Part shown: in pieces, positions 2 through 8,433 of the stretch
Layout of the letters: each line of letters begins with the position of its first letter
Numbering within the stretch: position 1 is the stretch's first letter
Source: an uncultured Eubacteriales bacterium
GTDB taxonomy: Bacteria > Bacillota > Clostridia > Christensenellales > UBA1242
Direction: 5' to 3'
Length of the DNA: 64,000 nucleotides
NCBI GenBank assembly: GCA_900552105.1
Contig: URYH01000001.1
Span: 2,341-66,340 of the forward strand
Translations under genes and position numbers: made by a program
The notes under the pieces: model-generated
What the model was told of the DNA's origin: nothing
What the model saw: only the letters and a program-made list of their open reading frames with translations
The model's database searches: none

Positions 2-1036
2 ACAATGTTCAGTCCAATGAGTAAACATAGAGATGAAATCTTCGGTTGGATTCCAAAAACAATTGAAAGCTATAACGATCCAAAGATGAGATGGAGTCCA
101 AAAATTGATAAACACGAGTTTGATGATTGCTTCAAAGATATAGACGTGCTTATTGCAACAGATTGTATTTCCGAAGGTCAAAACTTGCAGGACTGCGACC
201 TTTGCATAAATTACGATATTCACTGGAACCCAGTGCGCATTGTTCAAAGGTTTGGTCGTATTGACAGACTTGGAAGCAAAAACAAAGTAATAAGGCTTAT
301 AAACTTTTGGCCACCATTGCCACTTAATGAATACATCAACTTGACTGATAGGGTAAAGAGCAGGATGACAATTGTTGACCAAACTGCAACAGCCGATGAT
401 AACCTATTAAACCCAGATGACCAAATGGATGACTATCGTGAAATCCAAATAAAGAAACTTCGTGAAGGCGAGAACATTGACCTTGAAGATCAGAACAATG
501 GTATTTCAATCTCAGACCTTGGACTTAACGAGTTTAGAATGGATGCCGCGCAGTTTATTAAAACTTATGGCGAACCAAAACGAGTGCCAAAAGGAATGCA
601 CTCAGTTATCCCAGCAGATGAAGAAAAGGGTGTTGTGCCCGGTGTTATTTACATTTTGAAAAACCAAAACAACAATGTGAATATCAATAGGCAAAACAGG
701 TTGCACCCTTATTATCTCGTATATGTTGGTGTTGATGGCGAGATTATAGACAACCACTTGGAAGTCAAACAAATATTGGATGCACTTCGTTTGTCTTGCA
801 AAGGGCAAATTGCACCAATTCCAAAAGCATATAAAAAGTTCAATGATGAAACAAATGATGGACAGGATATGCACAAATATTCAGAACTACTTGAAGAAGC
901 CATAAAAAGCATAATTGAAGTTAAAGAACAAAGCGATATCAATGCACTTTTTAAACAAGGAAGTATGGTGCTAACGGGTGCAAAGATAAAAGGACTTGAT
1001 GACTTCGAACTATTAGCCTTCGTAGTAGTGAAATAA
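2..1036 (+). CDS. SNF2/DEAD-like superfamily-2 helicase, C-terminal part (5-prime end outside window)
   Basis: The frame is open from the window edge to the stop at 1034-1036. Helicase C-terminal motifs V-VI are readable ([17 protein letters not shown]; [19 protein letters not shown]). About 250 aa follow without a motif I recognise. Same strand as the next gene, 20 nt upstream of it. Confidence 0.8.
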
Positions 1037-1056
1037 CCCAAAGATAAGGAGAAAAG

Positions 1057-1695
1057 ATGTTTATCTATAGCGACAAAACTGCTGTAAATATAAACTTTAA
1101 GATGCTTGAACTTTTCAGAACAATAAAGGCAGATAAAACAATAAAAACAGATGCACAAGTTGTTTCAAAAGTCATTCTAGCAAACACATTATCACCAGAT
1201 AGGACAAATCTGGAACCAAGCGAAAATGTGAAAGAAATCTACATAATGGACATTGTGCTAAATAGTGCAAGTGTTCCAACAAAGTTTATTGATGCACTAA
1301 ATAAATACATAAACTTCCAAATACTTTTTAGATTGCGATACGGAGTAGATGTCAAGTATATCACATCACTAAAAGTATTTACTGAAGATAAAACTAAGGT
1401 TTTGAAAACTTGCGAAAGTGATTGGCAAGAAGAAAACAAGGAAGAGTTTCCAACTACTAGCAAACTAGAAAATGTTTTCAAAGCAATGGTAAGTTACATC
1501 ACGAAAATAAGGTTTAGACAAGATGAAACTTTTGAAGAATACACAGACCGAACCAACCAAATAAGAAAGCACAAAACAGAGATTGAGAAACTAACAAAAA
1601 CTCGTGATGCAGAAAAACAACCAAACACAAAAATGGCTATAAATAGCCAAATAAAAGAACTCAAAAGAGAATTGGAACAGTTGGAGGTAATATGA
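1057..1695 (+). CDS. Hypothetical protein, DUF4391-like by genomic context
   Basis: 212 aa with an AAGGAG RBS just upstream of the ATG. Its stop overlaps the next start (ATGA at 1692-1695). The family label rests on my memory of a recurrent helicase / DUF4391 / methylase / Res gene order, not on a search. Confidence 0.55.
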   Translation: MFIYSDKTAVNINFKMLELFRTIKADKTIKTDAQVVSKVILANTLSPDRTNLEPSENVKEIYIMDIVLNSASVPTKFIDALNKYINFQILFRLRYGVDVKYITSLKVFTEDKTKVLKTCESDWQEENKEEFPTTSKLENVFKAMVSYITKIRFRQDETFEEYTDRTNQIRKHKTEIEKLTKTRDAEKQPNTKMAINSQIKELKRELEQLEVI

Positions 1696-2129
1696 ATAGG
1701 AAAAATAAAAAAATGATTTTAGAAGATATTCAGCTTTGTGAGGAAGCATTAAAAAGCGAAAATAATAAAGATTTTTTTCAATATGTTTATAAAAAATATC
1801 AAAGATTAGATGGTGAGTTATTCATAGCAGGTAAATCTGGTGCTCTTAATAGTAGTTATGATAATTGGAGTAAACAAATCAATCAATTAATTGGTTCATT
1901 GCGGGGCTATTTATTGATGAAAGACTTCCCTAATAATATGAGGCGAACAAATACTAAGATCGTAATAAAAAACAAAGATGGAATTATTGGTAATGGCAAT
2001 GTAAACAAGATAGATAAAAAAACAGATATAAACACAACAGTGGATATTGATGTTAGTAAAGACGAAAATTTAAAGAGGAAAGGAATATTTTCAAAAATTT
2101 TTAGCATTTTTAAAGGAGAGAAAAAATAA
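1692..2129 (+). CDS. Hypothetical Lys/Asn-rich 145-aa protein
   Basis: The start overlaps the upstream stop (ATGA). Its stop TAA shares one base with the mod ATG (TAATG at 2127-2131). Visibly more A+T-rich than its neighbours. No recognisable motif. Confidence 0.6.
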   Translation: MNRKNKKMILEDIQLCEEALKSENNKDFFQYVYKKYQRLDGELFIAGKSGALNSSYDNWSKQINQLIGSLRGYLLMKDFPNNMRRTNTKIVIKNKDGIIGNGNVNKIDKKTDINTTVDIDVSKDENLKRKGIFSKIFSIFKGEKK

Positions 2130-3991
2130 TGGATAAATTACAAATGCAAAGTAAAAATTTGGTTGATGAAAATATTGAATTCATCGCAAAAAGGTTTCCA
2201 AATTGTGTAACGGAAGCAATAGATGAAAATGGCAAGTTGACTAGACTTGTCGATTTTGATTTGCTCAAACAGGAACTTAGTAAAGACATTGTTGAGGGTA
2301 ATGATGAAAGATACACGCTTAATTGGGCTGGGAAGAAACAAGCAATTTTAACAGCGAATTCTCCTATCAATGCAACACTTCGCCCATGCAGAGAAGAAAG
2401 TGTTGATTTTGATAGCACAAAAAACCTTTATATTGAGGGGGACAATCTTGACGTTTTGAAACTTCTTCGTGAAACTTACTTGAACAAAGTTAAAATGATT
2501 TATATTGACCCACCTTACAATACTGGTAATGATTTTGTGTATGAAGATGATTTTGCTAGTAGCACTGAAGATTATTTGCAAGCAAGTAAGAGTTATGATG
2601 ATCAAGGCAATAGAATGTTCCAAAACAACGATTCAAATGGTAGATTTCATTCTGATTGGCTTTCAATGATGTATTCAAGACTGAAATTAGCAAAAGATTT
2701 ATTAACTGATGATGGGGTAATTTTTATTTCTATTGATGACAATGAACAAGAGAATTTAAAGAAAATTTGCAATGAAATATTTGGTGAATTAAATTTTATT
2801 GGCACACATATACGAAAAACAGTATCCCAAAGAGCAATGGCAAAAAATTATAATACACAACACGAATATTGCTTAATCTATACTAAAAATTATAATAATT
2901 TTGATTTATGTGGCGACGAAAAAAACTTTGATGTTTACAGTAATCCAGATAATGATCCACGAGGAGATTGGAAAACATCTGATCCCACTATGAGTGGATC
3001 TAAAAATAATTTCGCGATTATCAATCCATATAACGGAAAAATAGATTTTCCACCAAAAGGAAGAGGTTGGGCTTTTACTAAAGAAAAATTTGATTGTTTA
3101 GTAGATGAAGGGACGGTTATTTTCAAGAAAGATTGCAAGGAATCGGAAAGAGGTTTTATTTACAAAGCTTATAAGAAAGATTTAAGAAGTCAAAATTTGC
3201 TTTTAAATTCTCTAGACGTTTGCGAAAATCAATATATGAATCAAGTTTCGACAAAAGAAATGATGGAATTATTTGATGAACGAATGTTTGACTACGCCAA
3301 ACCAGTTTCATTTGTAAGAAAAATATTAAGTTATGATAAAAATAAAGAATCAATTATATTAGATTTTTTCTCGGGCTCTGCAACAACTGCTCACGCAGTG
3401 ATGAAATTAAATGCCGAAGATGGTGGGAATAGAAAATTTATTATGGTTCAACTTCCTGAAGTTTGTGATGAAAAATCAGAAGCTTACAAGGCTGGATATA
3501 AAAACATTTGCGAAATTGGCAAGGAAAGAATCCGTCGTGCAGGCAAGAAAATTAAAGAAGAAAATCCTAATGCAAAAGATTTGGATATCGGTTTTAGAGA
3601 TTTAAAACTTGATAGCAGTTGTATGAAAGACATTTATTATTCACCAGATAAAACAACACAAGATTTGCTTACTCAATTTGAAGATAACATCAAAGAAAAT
3701 AGAACTCCAGAAGATTTGCTATTCCAAGTAATGCTTGATATGGGTGTAATGCTTTCAAGTGAAATAAAAACATTAGAAATCAATGGCAAAAAAGTATTCA
3801 ATGTTAACGATGGCGACCTTGTTTGCTGTTTTGATAAAGACCTTAACGAGACGACAGTTACAGCAATAGCAAAAATGCAACCATTGTATGCAGTATTCCG
3901 TGATGCAAGTATGTCAACCGATAGCGTGGCAGTAAACTTTGACCAAATATTTGAAACTTATTCGCCAACCACAACAAGGAAGATAATTTAA
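2129..3991 (+). CDS. mod: Type III restriction-modification DNA methyltransferase (Mod), beta-class amino-methyltransferase
   Basis: 620 aa. Motif IV DPPY (MIYIDPPYNTGNDF) precedes motif I FxGxG (ILDFFSGSATTAHAV), the order typical of type III Mod. An A+T-rich central segment (about 2700-3350) fits a variable target-recognition domain. Confidence 0.9.
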   Translation: MDKLQMQSKNLVDENIEFIAKRFPNCVTEAIDENGKLTRLVDFDLLKQELSKDIVEGNDERYTLNWAGKKQAILTANSPINATLRPCREESVDFDSTKNLYIEGDNLDVLKLLRETYLNKVKMIYIDPPYNTGNDFVYEDDFASSTEDYLQASKSYDDQGNRMFQNNDSNGRFHSDWLSMMYSRLKLAKDLLTDDGVIFISIDDNEQENLKKICNEIFGELNFIGTHIRKTVSQRAMAKNYNTQHEYCLIYTKNYNNFDLCGDEKNFDVYSNPDNDPRGDWKTSDPTMSGSKNNFAIINPYNGKIDFPPKGRGWAFTKEKFDCLVDEGTVIFKKDCKESERGFIYKAYKKDLRSQNLLLNSLDVCENQYMNQVSTKEMMELFDERMFDYAKPVSFVRKILSYDKNKESIILDFFSGSATTAHAVMKLNAEDGGNRKFIMVQLPEVCDEKSEAYKAGYKNICEIGKERIRRAGKKIKEENPNAKDLDIGFRDLKLDSSCMKDIYYSPDKTTQDLLTQFEDNIKENRTPEDLLFQVMLDMGVMLSSEIKTLEINGKKVFNVNDGDLVCCFDKDLNETTVTAIAKMQPLYAVFRDASMSTDSVAVNFDQIFETYSPTTTRKII

Positions 3992-4003
3992 GGAAGAAAA
4001 TTT

Positions 4004-7000
4004 ATGAAATTTAGATTCAAAACACAGCCATATCAACAAGAAGCTGTAAGTAATATCAGCAAGGTATTCAAAGGACAGCCAAAGTTGGATATGGTTAGAT
4101 ACACAAGAGACTTGGGTATTAAGAAAAAGACTGAGCAAGTTACGCAGGCTTCACTTTTTGACGCATATGACGAAAATGACGATGGTTTCGAAAATGCTAA
4201 AATTTTGCTTGATGAAACTGACATTTTGCAAAACATAAAGCATATTCAACAAGACTGCAATTACAAAGAGTCAGAAGAGTTGGTTAAAGGTTTTGGCAAA
4301 TGTTCTCTTGACATTGAAATGGAAACAGGAACAGGCAAAACCTATGTGTATATCAACACCATTTTTGAACTCAATGAAAGATATGGTTGGAGTAAATTCA
4401 TTGTTGTTGTTCCAAGCATTGCTATTCGTGAAGGTGTTAAAAAGTCATTCCAAATGATGGAAGATCACTTCATGGATCGTTATCACAAAAAGGCAAGATA
4501 CTTTGTCTATAACAGCAAAAGGCTTTCGGAACTCGATAGTTTTGCTTCAAGCAGTGATATCAATGTAATGATTATCAACACGCAAGCATTCAACGCTCGT
4601 GGCGCTGATGCCAGAAGAATTGATATGGTGCTTGATGAATTTCAATCAAGAAAACCAATTGATGTTGTGGCAAAAACAAGACCAATCCTAATTCTTGATG
4701 AACCACAAAAGATGGGCGATGAGAAGAGTGCAACACAACTTTCACTTCGCAAATTCAATCCACTATTTTGTATGAACTTCTCGGCAACACACAAAAAACA
4801 ACACAATCTTGTATATTGCCTGGATGCAGTGGATGCATACAACAAATGCTTGGTTAAAAAGATTCAAGTCAAGGGCTTTGAAATTAAGAACTTGCGTGGA
4901 ACAGATAAATACCTATACTTGCAAGACATTGTGCTTTCACCAAACAAACCACCAATGGCAAGAATAGAAATGGAAATAAACTATAAGGCGGGAATAAATA
5001 GAGAAACGAGACTTGTTGTAGTTGGAAGAAATTTATATGATATTTCTGCTGGCAAAGGTGCAACTCCTTTGCAACAATACAAAGACGGCTATGTTGTTTC
5101 TGACATCAATCCATTCAACAACACAATCACTTTCCTAAATGGACAAGTTTTGCATATAGGCGAAGTGCTTGGAGATGTATCAGACAAAGACCTTAGAAGA
5201 ATACAGATAAGAGAAACAATCCGTTCCCACTTTGAGAAAGAAGAGAAGCTTTACGATAAAGGAATCAAATGCTTGTCATTGTTCTTCATTGATGAAGTTG
5301 TAAAGTATAGGGATTACAACGAGCCAGATGAAAAAGGCGAATATGCAAGAATGTTTGAAGAAGAGTACACAAAGGCACTCAACGAAAAGATAACACTATT
5401 TGAAACACCTTACATTCGCTACTTGAAAGGCATTGATGTTAAAGACACACACAAAGGTTATTTCTCAATAGATAAAAAGACCGGAAGAATGATTGACTCA
5501 AAAGAAAGTAAAGGCGAAGGCTCGGATGATATCTCAGCATACGACCTAATACTAAAGAACAAAGAGAGATTGCTTTCAAAAGAAGAACCAACAAGATTTA
5601 TATTCTCACACTCAGCGCTTCGTGAAGGTTGGGATAACCCAAACATCTTCCAAATTTGTGCATTGAAACCAGGTGGCGACAGTGCAATTGCAAAACGACA
5701 AGAAGTTGGTCGTGGACTTCGTATTGCTGTAAATATGATAGGCGATAGAACAGACCTTCATTATTTCAAGAATGAGAGATCATCATTCCATAATGTCAAT
5801 ACTTTAACAGTTATTGCAACTGACAGTTATAAAGACTTCGTTGGTTCAATACAAAAAGTGATTAAAGAGAACCTTGCAGATAGACCTACAAGAGCAACAA
5901 TTGAGTATTTCCGTGGCAAATTCGTTAGCGATGGAAAAGAGAGAATTCAAGTTGGTAGCGATATGGCAAGTGATATTCAAAGTTATTTAAGATTTAACGG
6001 TTATGCTGATAAAGACAACAAAATCACTCAAAAATACTTTGATGACAAGGCAAACAACACACTTGCGGTAATGCCAGAAATCCTTGCACCATACACAGAA
6101 AGTGTGCATAAACTTGTTGAAAGCATTTACAATGAAAAAGCACTTGATGGTATGTTTGAAGATGCTAACAAGTCAACAGTGGAAAGCAATCCACTTAACG
6201 ATAACTTCCACAAGGCAGAGTTCCAAAAACTTTGGAAGCAAATCAACCATAAATATACATACAAAGTTGACTTTGACAGCGAAGAACTTATTAAGCATTC
6301 AATTGAAAGCATAAACAAAGGATTGTTCGTTGCTGAATTAAAGTATGTTGTAACAATCGGTCAGCAAAAGAAAACAATGGATGAGAACGCATTAAAGCGT
6401 GGTGATTCGTTTAGCACAACCGACACAAGAACTGAAACAATTCGTAGTGGTGCTGCCGATAACACAAAATACGATCTAATTGGAAAAATTGTAGATAATA
6501 CAACTTTAACTAGAAGAACAGTAGTTCGCATTTTGCAAGGTATTACAAGAGAAAAATTTGAAATGTTTGCTATCAATCCAGAAGAGTTTATAACAAAGGT
6601 TTCAAGACTTATAAACGAGCAAAAAGCTTCAATGATTGTTGACCACATAACATACAATAAAACCGAAGGCGAATACGACAGTGATATCTTCACAGGCAAC
6701 CAAGCAAAGATTGACTTTGACAAGGCATATAAGGCGCAAAAGGCAATTCAAGATTATGTTGTAACCGATGGAACAGCTGAAGAGTCAATAGAGCGTAAGT
6801 TTGCAAAAGAACTTGATGTGGCAAATGAAGTTTGTGTATATGCAAAACTTCCAAGGTCGTTCCAAATTCCAACGCCAGTTGGAAACTATGCTCCAGACTG
6901 GGCAATAGCATTTAACGAAGGCAGTGTAAAACACATATACTTTGTTGCTGAAACAAAAGGTAGTATGGAATCACTAGAACTTCGTGGAATAGAAAAAGCA

Positions 7001-7114
7001 AAAACAGATTGTGCCAAAAAACTGTTTGACCAACTTCAACTTGCAGGCAATGTAAGATACGAAGTGGTGGATAGTTACGAAAGTTTGCTAGACAAAATGC
7101 AATCAATAGATTAA
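4004..7114 (+). CDS. res: Type III restriction endonuclease subunit (Res), SF2 helicase plus PD-(D/E)xK nuclease
   Basis: 1036 aa. Motif I METGTGKTY, motif II ILILDEPQK, motif VI QEVGRGLR, and a C-terminal nuclease signature APDWAIAF ... YFVAETKG. AAGGAAG RBS. Starts 12 nt after the mod stop. Confidence 0.9.
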   Translation: MKFRFKTQPYQQEAVSNISKVFKGQPKLDMVRYTRDLGIKKKTEQVTQASLFDAYDENDDGFENAKILLDETDILQNIKHIQQDCNYKESEELVKGFGKCSLDIEMETGTGKTYVYINTIFELNERYGWSKFIVVVPSIAIREGVKKSFQMMEDHFMDRYHKKARYFVYNSKRLSELDSFASSSDINVMIINTQAFNARGADARRIDMVLDEFQSRKPIDVVAKTRPILILDEPQKMGDEKSATQLSLRKFNPLFCMNFSATHKKQHNLVYCLDAVDAYNKCLVKKIQVKGFEIKNLRGTDKYLYLQDIVLSPNKPPMARIEMEINYKAGINRETRLVVVGRNLYDISAGKGATPLQQYKDGYVVSDINPFNNTITFLNGQVLHIGEVLGDVSDKDLRRIQIRETIRSHFEKEEKLYDKGIKCLSLFFIDEVVKYRDYNEPDEKGEYARMFEEEYTKALNEKITLFETPYIRYLKGIDVKDTHKGYFSIDKKTGRMIDSKESKGEGSDDISAYDLILKNKERLLSKEEPTRFIFSHSALREGWDNPNIFQICALKPGGDSAIAKRQEVGRGLRIAVNMIGDRTDLHYFKNERSSFHNVNTLTVIATDSYKDFVGSIQKVIKENLADRPTRATIEYFRGKFVSDGKERIQVGSDMASDIQSYLRFNGYADKDNKITQKYFDDKANNTLAVMPEILAPYTESVHKLVESIYNEKALDGMFEDANKSTVESNPLNDNFHKAEFQKLWKQINHKYTYKVDFDSEELIKHSIESINKGLFVAELKYVVTIGQQKKTMDENALKRGDSFSTTDTRTETIRSGAADNTKYDLIGKIVDNTTLTRRTVVRILQGITREKFEMFAINPEEFITKVSRLINEQKASMIVDHITYNKTEGEYDSDIFTGNQAKIDFDKAYKAQKAIQDYVVTDGTAEESIERKFAKELDVANEVCVYAKLPRSFQIPTPVGNYAPDWAIAFNEGSVKHIYFVAETKGSMESLELRGIEKAKTDCAKKLFDQLQLAGNVRYEVVDSYESLLDKMQSID

Positions 7115-7126
7115 AATGAGGTAAAT

Positions 7127-7924
7127 ATGGGCGGGTTAATATTTTTTCTTTTAATTCTAATTTGTAGCATTGTTGCTGGAATTGAACAACTTGCACAAGG
7201 TCGAATAAATGGACTTTGGTATATTTTAGTTCCTGGTGTAATCATAGTGGCTTTTGTGATTGCTTTAATAAAACAATATAATAAAGTTAAAAAGAAATAT
7301 TTGCCGACAAGTATTAAACAAAAGATACAACCAAAAAATGATTCGTTTTATGATTATTGGAATCAAATGAGAGAAAAAGCACTGCACGGTCCACTTGCAA
7401 CAGAGGAATTATATGAACACCTTGCAAAAGTTTTTGAGGAGGGACACTATTCGAATGTTGAAGATGTATCAAAACAGGGGATAAAAATACTAAAAGGAAC
7501 AAATAAAAATGGGGAAAAATATACATTTTTTTCTCTTGAAGATACAGATTTGGACTTTGACAAGTTGGCAGATATTTCAGAATTTATCCAAACGGAAAAA
7601 TTGTCTGGTTCAAAAATAAACTATGTGGCACAGCAAGTGCCGAAACAACCATATACCAATTTGTTTAAAAAGTGTATGATGGGAGAGGGTGTCAAAGTAT
7701 ACGACACAATCACAGTTTTAGATGAAGCAAACAAAATGCTTGGAATAGTGCAAGCACAAAATTTATCACAAGTAAGTGAGAAGAAAGTCGCAAAAGTGCA
7801 GAAGCCAAAGTATGAAAAAGTGTTCCCACACATGATGAGTTCCGATGATGATCCAGAAGAATTGCAGGAACTTGATGATATGATGGTTATGGATACTCTA
7901 GATGAAGATGATGATATGTTTTAA
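7127..7924 (+). CDS. Membrane-anchored hypothetical protein with a poly-acidic C-terminal tail
   Basis: 265 aa with two N-terminal hydrophobic helices (LIFFLLILICSIVAGI; LWYILVPGVIIVAFVIALI). The tail is SSDDDPEELQELDDMMVMDTLDEDDDMF. GAGG RBS. Starts 12 nt after the res stop. Confidence 0.7.
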   Translation: MGGLIFFLLILICSIVAGIEQLAQGRINGLWYILVPGVIIVAFVIALIKQYNKVKKKYLPTSIKQKIQPKNDSFYDYWNQMREKALHGPLATEELYEHLAKVFEEGHYSNVEDVSKQGIKILKGTNKNGEKYTFFSLEDTDLDFDKLADISEFIQTEKLSGSKINYVAQQVPKQPYTNLFKKCMMGEGVKVYDTITVLDEANKMLGIVQAQNLSQVSEKKVAKVQKPKYEKVFPHMMSSDDDPEELQELDDMMVMDTLDEDDDMF

Positions 7925-7936
7925 AAGGAGATAAAA

Positions 7937-8236
7937 ATGGAAAAAGAAATTATCATTCCACAAGGGTTATATGAAATAGGAGTAGATTTCCCAGAAGGAT
8001 CATACATTTTTGATTCAATGAATAAATATGGAACTCTTGAGATATTTGATCAAAAAAAACTTCAAAAGAGCAATTTGGATAATGACTACGATGATGACGA
8101 TGACATTGAAAGATATTTTGTTTTGGGTACAGGAAATGGTTTTCAATGCAAAGTAGTATTAAAAAAGAAAGATTGTCTAAAGATTGATTTTAGGGCAAAA
8201 GTAAGCAAGGTAAAAAAGATTTCATTTGAAGATTAA
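7937..8236 (+). CDS. Hypothetical 99-aa protein with an acidic run
   Basis: AAGGAG RBS, 12 nt after the previous stop. Internal DNDYDDDDDIE tract. Confidence 0.6.
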   Translation: MEKEIIIPQGLYEIGVDFPEGSYIFDSMNKYGTLEIFDQKKLQKSNLDNDYDDDDDIERYFVLGTGNGFQCKVVLKKKDCLKIDFRAKVSKVKKISFED

Positions 8237-8433
8237 GACAAAATAGACTAGGCAAAAGACATGGTCTATTTCTGTAAAAAGTTAAAATAAATATTTCAAA
8301 TCCTATTTTTAACTTTGGAAATTTAAATTTTTTTATACAGAATTGAAAATAATATATTATAATACAAACATAGTTGCAAAGATGCTCAAAATCATACTCC
8401 ACTTATGCAACTTAAAAATAAAAGGAGAATATT

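Follow-up and report, generated by a model that had tools for sequence, protein, structure and literature searches.

Classical type III restriction-modification (R-M) enzymes consist of Mod and Res only, and the locus described here raises the question of why such a pair should be encoded behind a second, SNF2-family helicase and a protein of the DUF4391 family. The locus occupies positions 2-8236 at the start of a 64,000-nucleotide stretch of contig URYH01000001.1 from an uncultured Eubacteriales bacterium (the window, by which we mean this whole stretch). An earlier reading of the window, made from its letters and referred to here as the original prediction, had described seven coupled open reading frames (ORFs) at this locus and had suggested that they might work as a composite defence system. 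We find that the SNF2 helicase, the DUF4391 protein, Mod and Res very probably constitute a conserved four-gene unit. The explanation that we favour overall, with a probability of roughly 0.6, is that of a four-gene cassette in which a type III enzyme is joined by an accessory SNF2-DUF4391 module; the cassette carries cargo genes and in this lineage is subject to promoter inversion.

The four-gene unit across genomes

We sampled the family from three sides, starting from DUF4391, from the helicase and from Res. The N-terminal domain of the helicase is encoded in at least 558 GTDB species representatives, and the helicase-centred sample, annotated with custom hidden Markov models, comprises the 80 loci among them that are most similar to the query. 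The helicase is found in Bacillota, Bacteroidales, spirochaetes, alpha-, beta- and gammaproteobacteria and Campylobacter, and also in Opitutales, Victivallaceae, Synergistaceae, Fibrobacter, Corallococcus and Eggerthellaceae. At the informative loci of this sample it is accompanied by DUF4391 in 66 of 67 cases, by Mod in 56 of 56 and by Res in 47 of 49, and the order helicase, DUF4391, Mod, Res is invariant; the exceptions are one deletion, one decayed locus and one contig end. The original prediction had stated that a helicase and a DUF4391-like protein recur beside type III-like mod and res genes, and this recurrence is thus real and near absolute. Occurrence of the two genes independently of mod and res was looked for as well, and no intact helicase-DUF4391 pair without Mod-Res was seen in the helicase-centred sample.

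Approached from Res, the association is nearly as strong. In a Res-centred sample of IMG/VR loci, 63 of them informative, all four genes are present at 53, down to 34-37% Res identity; about five loci in the same Res clade are intact and carry Mod and Res only, and the remainder are degraded. Approached from DUF4391, four members with 22-30% identity to the protein of the window all lie in the same ordered cassette (4/4), in which an SNF2 protein of 1091-1103 aa is followed by DUF4391, an N6_N4_Mtase protein and a Res with an RE_endonuc domain; these distant loci include a Rhodocyclaceae genome and a conjugative element. Since the helicase-DUF4391 pair is almost never found without Mod-Res, while the Mod-Res clade is sometimes found alone, SNF2-DUF4391 is most likely an accessory module that depends on Mod-Res.

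The four genes have also diverged together. Mantel tests on 89 complete loci (all p=0.001) gave r=0.85 for helicase and DUF4391, 0.79 for DUF4391 and Res, 0.77 for Mod and Res, 0.75 for helicase and Res, 0.61 for DUF4391 and Mod, and 0.57 for helicase and Mod. The helicase is the most conserved component of the cassette, with a mean pairwise identity of 0.61 (Res, 0.55; Mod, 0.48; DUF4391, 0.32), which is not what a dispensable passenger would show. At the helicase-sampled loci the median gap between mod and res is 7 nt and that between the helicase and DUF4391 genes is -1 nt, the latter two genes usually overlapping or abutting; the overlap suggests that the helicase and DUF4391 form a stoichiometric pair.

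The cassette is horizontally mobile. Members of the helicase family were found on 122 plasmid records (Listeria, 20; Enterococcus, 18; Bacillus, 15; Escherichia, 14; Acinetobacter, 11; and others), and the plasmid genus profiles of helicase and DUF4391 matches agree. A count over 5,426 complete E. coli genomes gave 10 with the cassette, which is mostly plasmid-borne there; plasmid pLAO18 (NZ_OP242248.1) carries a minimal four-gene copy at 3154-12215, and a second minimal copy is present at another of the sampled loci (L012). On pLAO18 (region 3154-14856), one of the IncFIB plasmids of about 110 kb, the cassette lies near repA and is followed by a gene for a LAGLIDADG homing endonuclease. One E. 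coli copy is interrupted by ISApl1. We also note that Listeria innocua pLI100 (NC_003383.1, 19767-38060) harbours a remnant of the cassette scrambled by IS1216, in which a 185-aa DUF4391-like fragment, a truncated methyltransferase gene and an inverted helicase gene adjoin an arsenic-resistance operon. A further unusual arrangement was seen on a single contig (L126, 1940-4327), where a 795-aa PglZ::DUF4391 fusion occurs with no SNF2 helicase, flanked on one side by genes for a PglX-like methyltransferase and a 23S_rRNA_IVP protein and on the other by type III Mod-Res. This fusion is most likely the product of a deletion that joined a BREX locus to a neighbouring cassette; that it represents a real BREX/type III hybrid is less likely.

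In the window itself the seven plus-strand ORFs are as tightly coupled as had been described, with coordinates and junctions exact: a 20-nt gap, an ATGA overlap, a TAATG overlap and then three 12-nt gaps. A Shine-Dalgarno sequence of the GGAG/GAGG type lies 5' of each of the seven starts. The original prediction had further held that no terminator appears before 8236. Our scans are consistent with this, but the claim is only weakly testable: two weak plus-strand sites fall within the operon (628-640 and 2230-2252), terminator-like sites total 6 against 5.2 +/- 2.4 expected, which is no more than chance, and the promoter scan and the terminator scan each give counts at or below chance. A weak hairpin is all that was found on the 3' side of 8236, and beyond it the next gene has a promoter-like site of its own; the 825-aa product of this gene is predicted to be secreted or lipoprotein-like. 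Some strains have an intact copy of the gene, whereas only two short pieces of it are left in three others (L001, L003 and L006); given its own promoter-like site and its pseudogene remnant in sister strains, we place it outside the system.

The window begins within the helicase gene, so that 773 N-terminal residues lie outside it. The original prediction had called for the missing part to be recovered, and this was possible: a search for exact copies of the DUF4391 protein gave eight metagenomic contigs. One of these, L002, agrees with the window at every position over 11,695 nt and reaches further upstream, its position 8945 corresponding to position 1 of the window. The helicase gene starts at L002 6627, which is 2318 nt upstream of the window, and encodes a protein of 1117 aa. 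The features of the locus are collected in Table 1.

Table 1. Features of the cassette locus in the window and on the upstream part of contig L002
Feature	Sequence	Coordinates	Strand	Supporting evidence
tRNA-Leu	L002	5422-5504		adjoins the recombinase end of the island
Serine recombinase, 201 aa	L002	5708-6313	minus	Pfam Resolvase, E=2e-24
Invertible segment with candidate promoter	L002, upstream of window	6386-6556		perfect 21-nt inverted repeats around 129 nt
SNF2-family helicase, C-terminal 344 aa (partial ORF)	window	2-1036	plus	Pfam Helicase_C, E=3e-12
DUF4391 protein, 212 aa	window	1057-1695	plus	Pfam PF14335, 82.4 bits
Basic 145-aa protein, pI 9.7	window	1692-2129	plus	no family match
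Type III Mod, 620 aa, beta-class N6-adenine DNA methyltransferase	window	2129-3991	plus	PADLOC MTase_III, E=1e-230; Pfam N6_N4_Mtase
Type III Res, 1036 aa, SF2 ATPase and PD-(D/E)xK	window	4004-7114	plus	PADLOC REase_III, E=2e-285; Pfam ResIII, RE_endonuc
265-aa protein, two N-terminal hydrophobic helices, acidic tail	window	7127-7924	plus	no family match
Acidic 99-aa protein, pI 4.9, poly-Asp loop, last gene of the operon	window	7937-8236	plus	no significant family match
825-aa protein (not part of the operon)	window	8434-10911		Flg_new_2 (InlB B-repeat) domain

Mod, Res and the two additional proteins

The original prediction had taken Mod and Res to be intact, and both profile matches and catalytic motifs agree. 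In Mod, a DPPY motif at residue 127 is followed by the recognition domain and then by motif I, DFFSGSATT, at 413; motif I had been given as FxGxG and should instead be written FxGxA, the last position being G, S or A among cassette Mods, so that this is a normal variant. Mod matches the Mod of PDB entry 6k0w (E=8e-109) and that of EcoP15I (E=9e-68). Res carries GTGKT at 109, DEPQ at 232, QEVGRGLR at 566 and PD...ETK at 964-985, and it matches EcoP15I Res over both domains (E=7e-65); it scores 345 bits against a cut-off of 564 for the StyLTI-type equivalog of NCBIfam. Judging by these matches, Mod and Res form an EcoP15I-type type III enzyme. The likeness to the classical systems (EcoP15I, EcoP1I and StyLTI) extends to the homology of both subunits, the same order of motifs, the position of mod 5' of res, the union of an SF2 ATPase with a C-terminal PD-(D/E)xK domain in Res, and the swapping of recognition domains from strain to strain. 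The cassette differs from them in that SNF2 and DUF4391 precede mod in 84-96% of the sampled loci of the clade, so that it does not have the two-gene composition by which those systems are defined. It differs also in that phase variation, which in classical type III systems usually occurs through repeat tracts in mod, would occur here through promoter inversion; no simple-sequence-repeat tracts were found in the operon.

The swapping of recognition domains can be seen among close relatives of the window. The window encodes a Mod of 620 aa and a sister strain one of 668 aa (L001, 11073-13079); the central recognition domains of such alleles are 12-30% identical, against 90-100% at the ends of the protein, and the remainder of the operon is about 96-100% identical between strains with different Mod alleles. 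It follows from such a swap within a near-identical operon that strains of one species differ in specificity. Res occurs as alleles of 1036 and 1031 aa that differ in one stretch of about 60 aa, and synonymous and non-synonymous changes between strains stand at 132:12.

Profile searches also confirm what had been proposed for the first two genes, namely that they encode an SNF2-like helicase and a DUF4391-like protein. The 212-aa protein scores 82.4 bits with PF14335 against a gathering cut-off of 29.9 and covers positions 33-232 of the 232 in the model. In its AlphaFold2 (AF2) model (pLDDT 94.3) a six-stranded alpha/beta domain leads into a helical hairpin at the C-terminus; no Foldseek match at E<=1e-3 was obtained for it in PDB or in BFVD (viral models), and the protein has no obvious catalytic motif. 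The DUF4391 family comprises 875 representatives at 50% clustering, and the term DUF4391 was met in the accessible literature only in an enrichment table and as a typo for DUF7941. No description of the cassette as a whole was found in the openly accessible literature, REBASE lying outside the scope of that search, and the RefSeq annotation of cassette copies is generic only. The cassette is conserved and unnamed, the roles of its two extra components are unassigned, and the mechanism set out below is one that we infer.

What these two components might do is suggested by comparison with other methylation-based systems. Loading and activation of the methyltransferase of MANTIS require both an ATPase and a small co-regulator, a separate helicase-nuclease carries out restriction, and, much as type III systems do, MANTIS shows hemimethylation and prefers inverted sites (bioRxiv 10.64898/2026.09.23.753747). 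The cassette resembles MANTIS and Gao_RL (BREX-related type 2) in having four genes, for an ATPase, a small protein, an N6-adenine methyltransferase and a helicase-nuclease, and in combining two ATPases within one methylation-based system. The components themselves are different: where MANTIS has a first ATPase of the ORC/Cdc6-type AAA+ class (DUF499), a DUF3870 protein and an HKD-SF2 effector, the cassette has SNF2, DUF4391 and a type III Res, and profile searches detected no homology between MANTIS components and the seven proteins of the operon. Neither a BrxC/DUF499 ATPase nor a PglZ domain, as sought for BREX, BREX-related systems and MANTIS, was found among the seven proteins. A second comparison is with DISARM class 1 and ARMADA II, where an SNF2-type ATPase (DrmD or ArmA) likewise stands beside an adenine methyltransferase and a helicase-nuclease; in growth assays with phage Bas18, an ARMADA II mutant without the SNF2-type ArmA was no longer protected. 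The helicase of the cassette has local PADLOC matches to DrmD (E=1e-33) and scores 64 against a cut-off of 610 with the NCBIfam DrmD model. Searches with Pfam, PADLOC and NCBIfam found no DrmA, DrmB (DUF1998), DrmC or PLD protein in the operon, and in contrast to DISARM and ARMADA the nuclease is a type III Res. MANTIS, ARMADA, Hma and AbiR were each considered as the same system and were rejected after comparison with their descriptions.

By analogy with these systems, the mechanism that we propose is as follows. Mod would mark the cell's own DNA, its swappable recognition domain determining the site, and DNA that lacks the mark would be cut by Res, as is predicted from homology. SNF2-DUF4391 would act as a second, ATP-driven factor for licensing or loading, determining when and where Mod-Res engages DNA. 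The operon would be transcribed from the 129-bp segment inverted by the serine recombinase, such that defence and methylation are ON in some cells and OFF in others. The loading or licensing role is the tentative part of this proposal, and we regard it as somewhat less probable than its converse. It is more doubtful still that the cassette represents a distinct type III-like class in which an SNF2 motor and DUF4391, as an adaptor with a new fold, are required to load or license Mod-Res. If it did, then a component that the classical enzyme does not have would impose an ATP-dependent gate on methylation, on restriction or on both, the mechanism would be convergent with those of MANTIS and BREX on a type III chassis, and the standing of the helicase as the most conserved part across hundreds of species would be explained.

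The alternative that fares best is a mechanical one, in which SNF2-DUF4391 acts as a double-stranded DNA translocase that clears roadblocks or anti-restriction factors, or that drives site-to-site communication for Res. SNF2 proteins are double-stranded DNA translocases and remodellers. In the helicase of the cassette, the part within the window holds motifs V-VI of the RecA2 lobe and a C-terminal region of about 240 aa, SNF2-rel_dom, ResIII and Helicase_C domains are recognised in the complete sequence, its ATPase motifs are intact (GLGKT, motif I; DESH, motif II; QRFGRIDR, motif VI), and its sequence matches in PDB are Snf2, Sth1, INO80 and RapA. Dependence on Mod-Res would be expected of such a helper just as it would of a licensing factor, and the present data do not separate the two. 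The helper model leaves no obvious role for DUF4391, however, and a Res of the EcoP15I type carries its own ATPase for site-to-site communication. We therefore consider a purely mechanical role rather unlikely, if not much more so than licensing.

Less probable is the view that two independent defence systems are merely co-localised, SNF2-DUF4391 being autonomous and the type III R-M pair its neighbour. Defence genes do cluster, unrelated ones are embedded in these very operons, and Mod-Res pairs without the other two genes exist in an intact state. This view is nevertheless difficult to reconcile with a fixed gene order, with start and stop codons that overlap, with co-occurrence in 47 of 49 loci across many phyla, and with the failure of any intact helicase-DUF4391 pair to appear without Mod-Res. 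Neither the helicase nor DUF4391 has a recognisable effector domain, and the correlation between helicase and Res is similar to that between Mod and Res, which are known partners. We consider it improbable.

A further possibility was raised by the annotation of the helicase and by the suggestion in the original prediction that the second helicase might add a second activity: that it is a nuclease-motor effector with an HKD/PLD domain fused to SNF2, like MtsD or the effectors of BREX-related systems, among which HKD-SNF2 proteins are known. The best PADLOC model for the helicase, PDLC01075, is indeed labelled 'HKD+Snf2' (in full, 'C3a139, HKD+Snf2') and matches end to end (E=3e-105; residues 6-1116 against positions 5-947 of 948), the label deriving from cluster 139 of a survey of genes near type III CRISPR loci. 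The N-terminal domain, of about 245 aa and 45-58% identical across phyla, does not bear the label out. It contains no invariant His, whether among 5 sequences or among 29 diverse ones, no PLD/HKD family of Pfam was matched at E<=5 by any of those 29 domains, and no PDB sequence match was found for it; the label was rejected, the catalytic HxK(x)4D motif not having been found. Given that Res already provides a conserved PD-(D/E)xK nuclease, an effector role for the helicase is very improbable. Comparison with the Hma and HKD-SNF2 systems (PMC12839542, PMC11232893) places the helicase in the same broad group of SNF2 defence helicases; it differs in that the cassette has no HKD motif and no DUF499/HmaC ATPase, and the match to HmaA is local only.

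Cargo slots and a candidate promoter switch

Three of the seven genes of the operon stand apart from the other four. No match to Pfam, PADLOC, NCBIfam or PHROGs was found for the 145-, 265- and 99-aa ORFs, and no homologues were found in 160 other cassettes, the three being confined to this species; among the helicase-sampled loci, the 145-aa protein has homologues only in L001-L008. The positions between the core genes are frequently and variously occupied. Slots exceeding 300 nt are found between DUF4391 and Mod at 41 of 64 loci, between Mod and Res at 26 of 55, and between the helicase and DUF4391 at 9 of 68, and their occupants are diverse, with 159 singletons. Recurrent occupants belong to the families 23S_rRNA_IVP, RhuM, KAP NTPase, SLFN_AlbA_2/HATPase_c_4, OLD-family nuclease and DUF4365, types that are commonly found within R-M operons. 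At three loci (L011, 11124-12782; L072, 15908-17563; L083, 13958-15838) complete genes of defence type lie between core genes, including SLFN_AlbA_2/HATPase_c_4 and an OLD-family AAA_15+TOPRIM nuclease, and the cassette is thus a carrier of embedded defence cargo. The 145-aa gene of the window occupies the slot between DUF4391 and Mod, where same-species variants encode 140-146 aa. We conclude that the 145-, 265- and 99-aa ORFs are, in good probability, lineage-specific cargo.

Of the seven-gene composite system envisaged in the original prediction, then, the four-gene part stands. That all seven ORFs make up one co-evolved system, as their tight coupling, their seven Shine-Dalgarno sites and the retention of the 265- and 99-aa genes by every sister strain examined whose contig extends to them might suggest, is highly improbable, because the small ORFs are absent from the other cassettes, minimal four-gene copies exist (E. 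coli pLAO18 and L012) and strains of this one species already differ in what they carry in the 145-aa slot.

Operon content varies among sister strains (L106, L109, L110, L114 and L117), and in some of them an extra 222-aa gene lies between the helicase and DUF4391 genes. In L117 a gene of the SieB family (PF14163) is called directly after DUF4391, and in L106 a product is called as DUF4391+SieB; the helicase gene is split in L111, L113 and L120. The 265-aa protein has hydrophobic 19-mers within residues 1-52, and its 90% cluster holds 53 sequence variants, all of 265 aa; a single-sequence AF2 model of it (pLDDT 59) was unusable. The C-terminus of this membrane-anchored protein, encoded near 7840-7921, ends ...LDEDDDMF, an acidic tail with a terminal aromatic residue that we take to resemble the C-terminal tail of bacterial SSB (DDDIPF). 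The 99-aa protein is 89-100% identical among sister strains. At one locus (L128) a prophage lies directly 3' of Res, which makes that locus uninformative on downstream add-ons.

The part of L002 that lies upstream of the window points to a means by which the whole operon could be controlled. The gene for the serine recombinase is divergent from that for the helicase, with 73 nt between it and the left arm of the inverted repeat, and the 129-nt segment between the arms carries an extended -10 element, TGTTATAAT, which faces the helicase gene in what we call the ON state and which, as a consensus match, is a candidate promoter. Among 21 unique contigs of the lineage that span the switch, anchored on the recombinase gene, 16 have the segment in the ON and 5 in the OFF orientation; once reverse-complemented, the spacers of the OFF contigs share 96-98% identity with the ON spacer. 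Another 12 contigs or more break off at an arm of the repeat or within it, breaks that are accounted for by the behaviour of assemblers on mixed orientations. The copy that belongs to the window is in the ON orientation. Inversion of the segment almost certainly occurs, and it probably switches transcription of the operon. In the OFF state the candidate promoter would face the recombinase gene, and it is possible that this could provide feedback on switching.

A comparable arrangement is present in a pair of Opitutales loci (L079 and L090, 9767-9952), where a divergent recombinase gene and a 27-nt inverted repeat around 132 nt adjoin the same cassette. The flanks of the two loci are 96-97% identical, while the segment is 28% identical when compared directly and 95.5% identical as the reverse complement. 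The Opitutales switch is an independent acquisition, and a switch has thus been gained in at least two phyla. Small serine recombinases encoded beside promoter segments flanked by inverted repeats, with both orientations present in populations, are familiar from Hin/Gin-type DNA invertases and from the invertons of gut bacteria. The present locus is like them in its recombinase, inverted repeats and observed pair of orientations, and its segment carries a candidate promoter; it differs in the gene set that would be controlled, which is the four-gene cassette. A search of JGI metagenomes with patterns for the OFF junction and with orientation-neutral patterns for the arms gave no match, a result that is uninformative given that the lineage is absent there.

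The island that comprises the recombinase gene and the cassette lies between tRNA-Leu and an ABC-transporter operon in a spore-forming Clostridia genome known from gut metagenomes, a position that suggests tRNA-associated integration. At two other loci (L098 and L104) the same recombinase occurs without the cassette.

Weight of the evidence and meaning of the cassette

Several points weigh against our overall explanation. The helicase-centred sample covers only the 80 loci nearest to the query out of at least 558, and co-divergence of the kind measured here would also be expected from simple co-inheritance on one mobile element. The evidence for the tentatively proposed licensing role consists of gene linkage, co-divergence and analogy. 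Intact relatives with Mod and Res only show that the core can persist by itself, so that SNF2-DUF4391 could be doing something else for which an R-M system simply has to be present. As to the switch, the role of the segment as a promoter is predicted from a consensus match, and invertons are not a general feature of the family: inverted repeats were found upstream of the helicase gene at 8 of 70 loci, against 6 of 52 control windows. Finally, conservation of the three small ORFs among strains of the species means that they may matter locally.

What the cassette implies for R-M systems is best seen against the textbook view of type III enzymes as complexes of two subunits, of which a large clade is now seen to be accompanied by a further ATPase and a protein that has no known structural relative. 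The stricter conservation of these added genes, compared with that of the nuclease, implies that the discrimination of self from non-self is subject to a layer of control not recognised so far. The cassette also bears on the current question of what extra ATPases contribute to methylation-based defences. Such loci are scored by annotation pipelines and defence finders as 'type III R-M' plus a generic helicase, which leaves the module invisible in censuses of defence systems. Plasmids that carry the helicase include those of E. coli, Acinetobacter, Listeria, Enterococcus and Lactococcus. The minimal copy on IncFIB plasmids of E. coli makes the role of the module directly testable. In gut Clostridia and in Verrucomicrobiota, a whole restriction and methylation system would be switched ON and OFF by the predicted promoter inversion, and sibling cells should then differ in their susceptibility to phage as well as in their methylomes.

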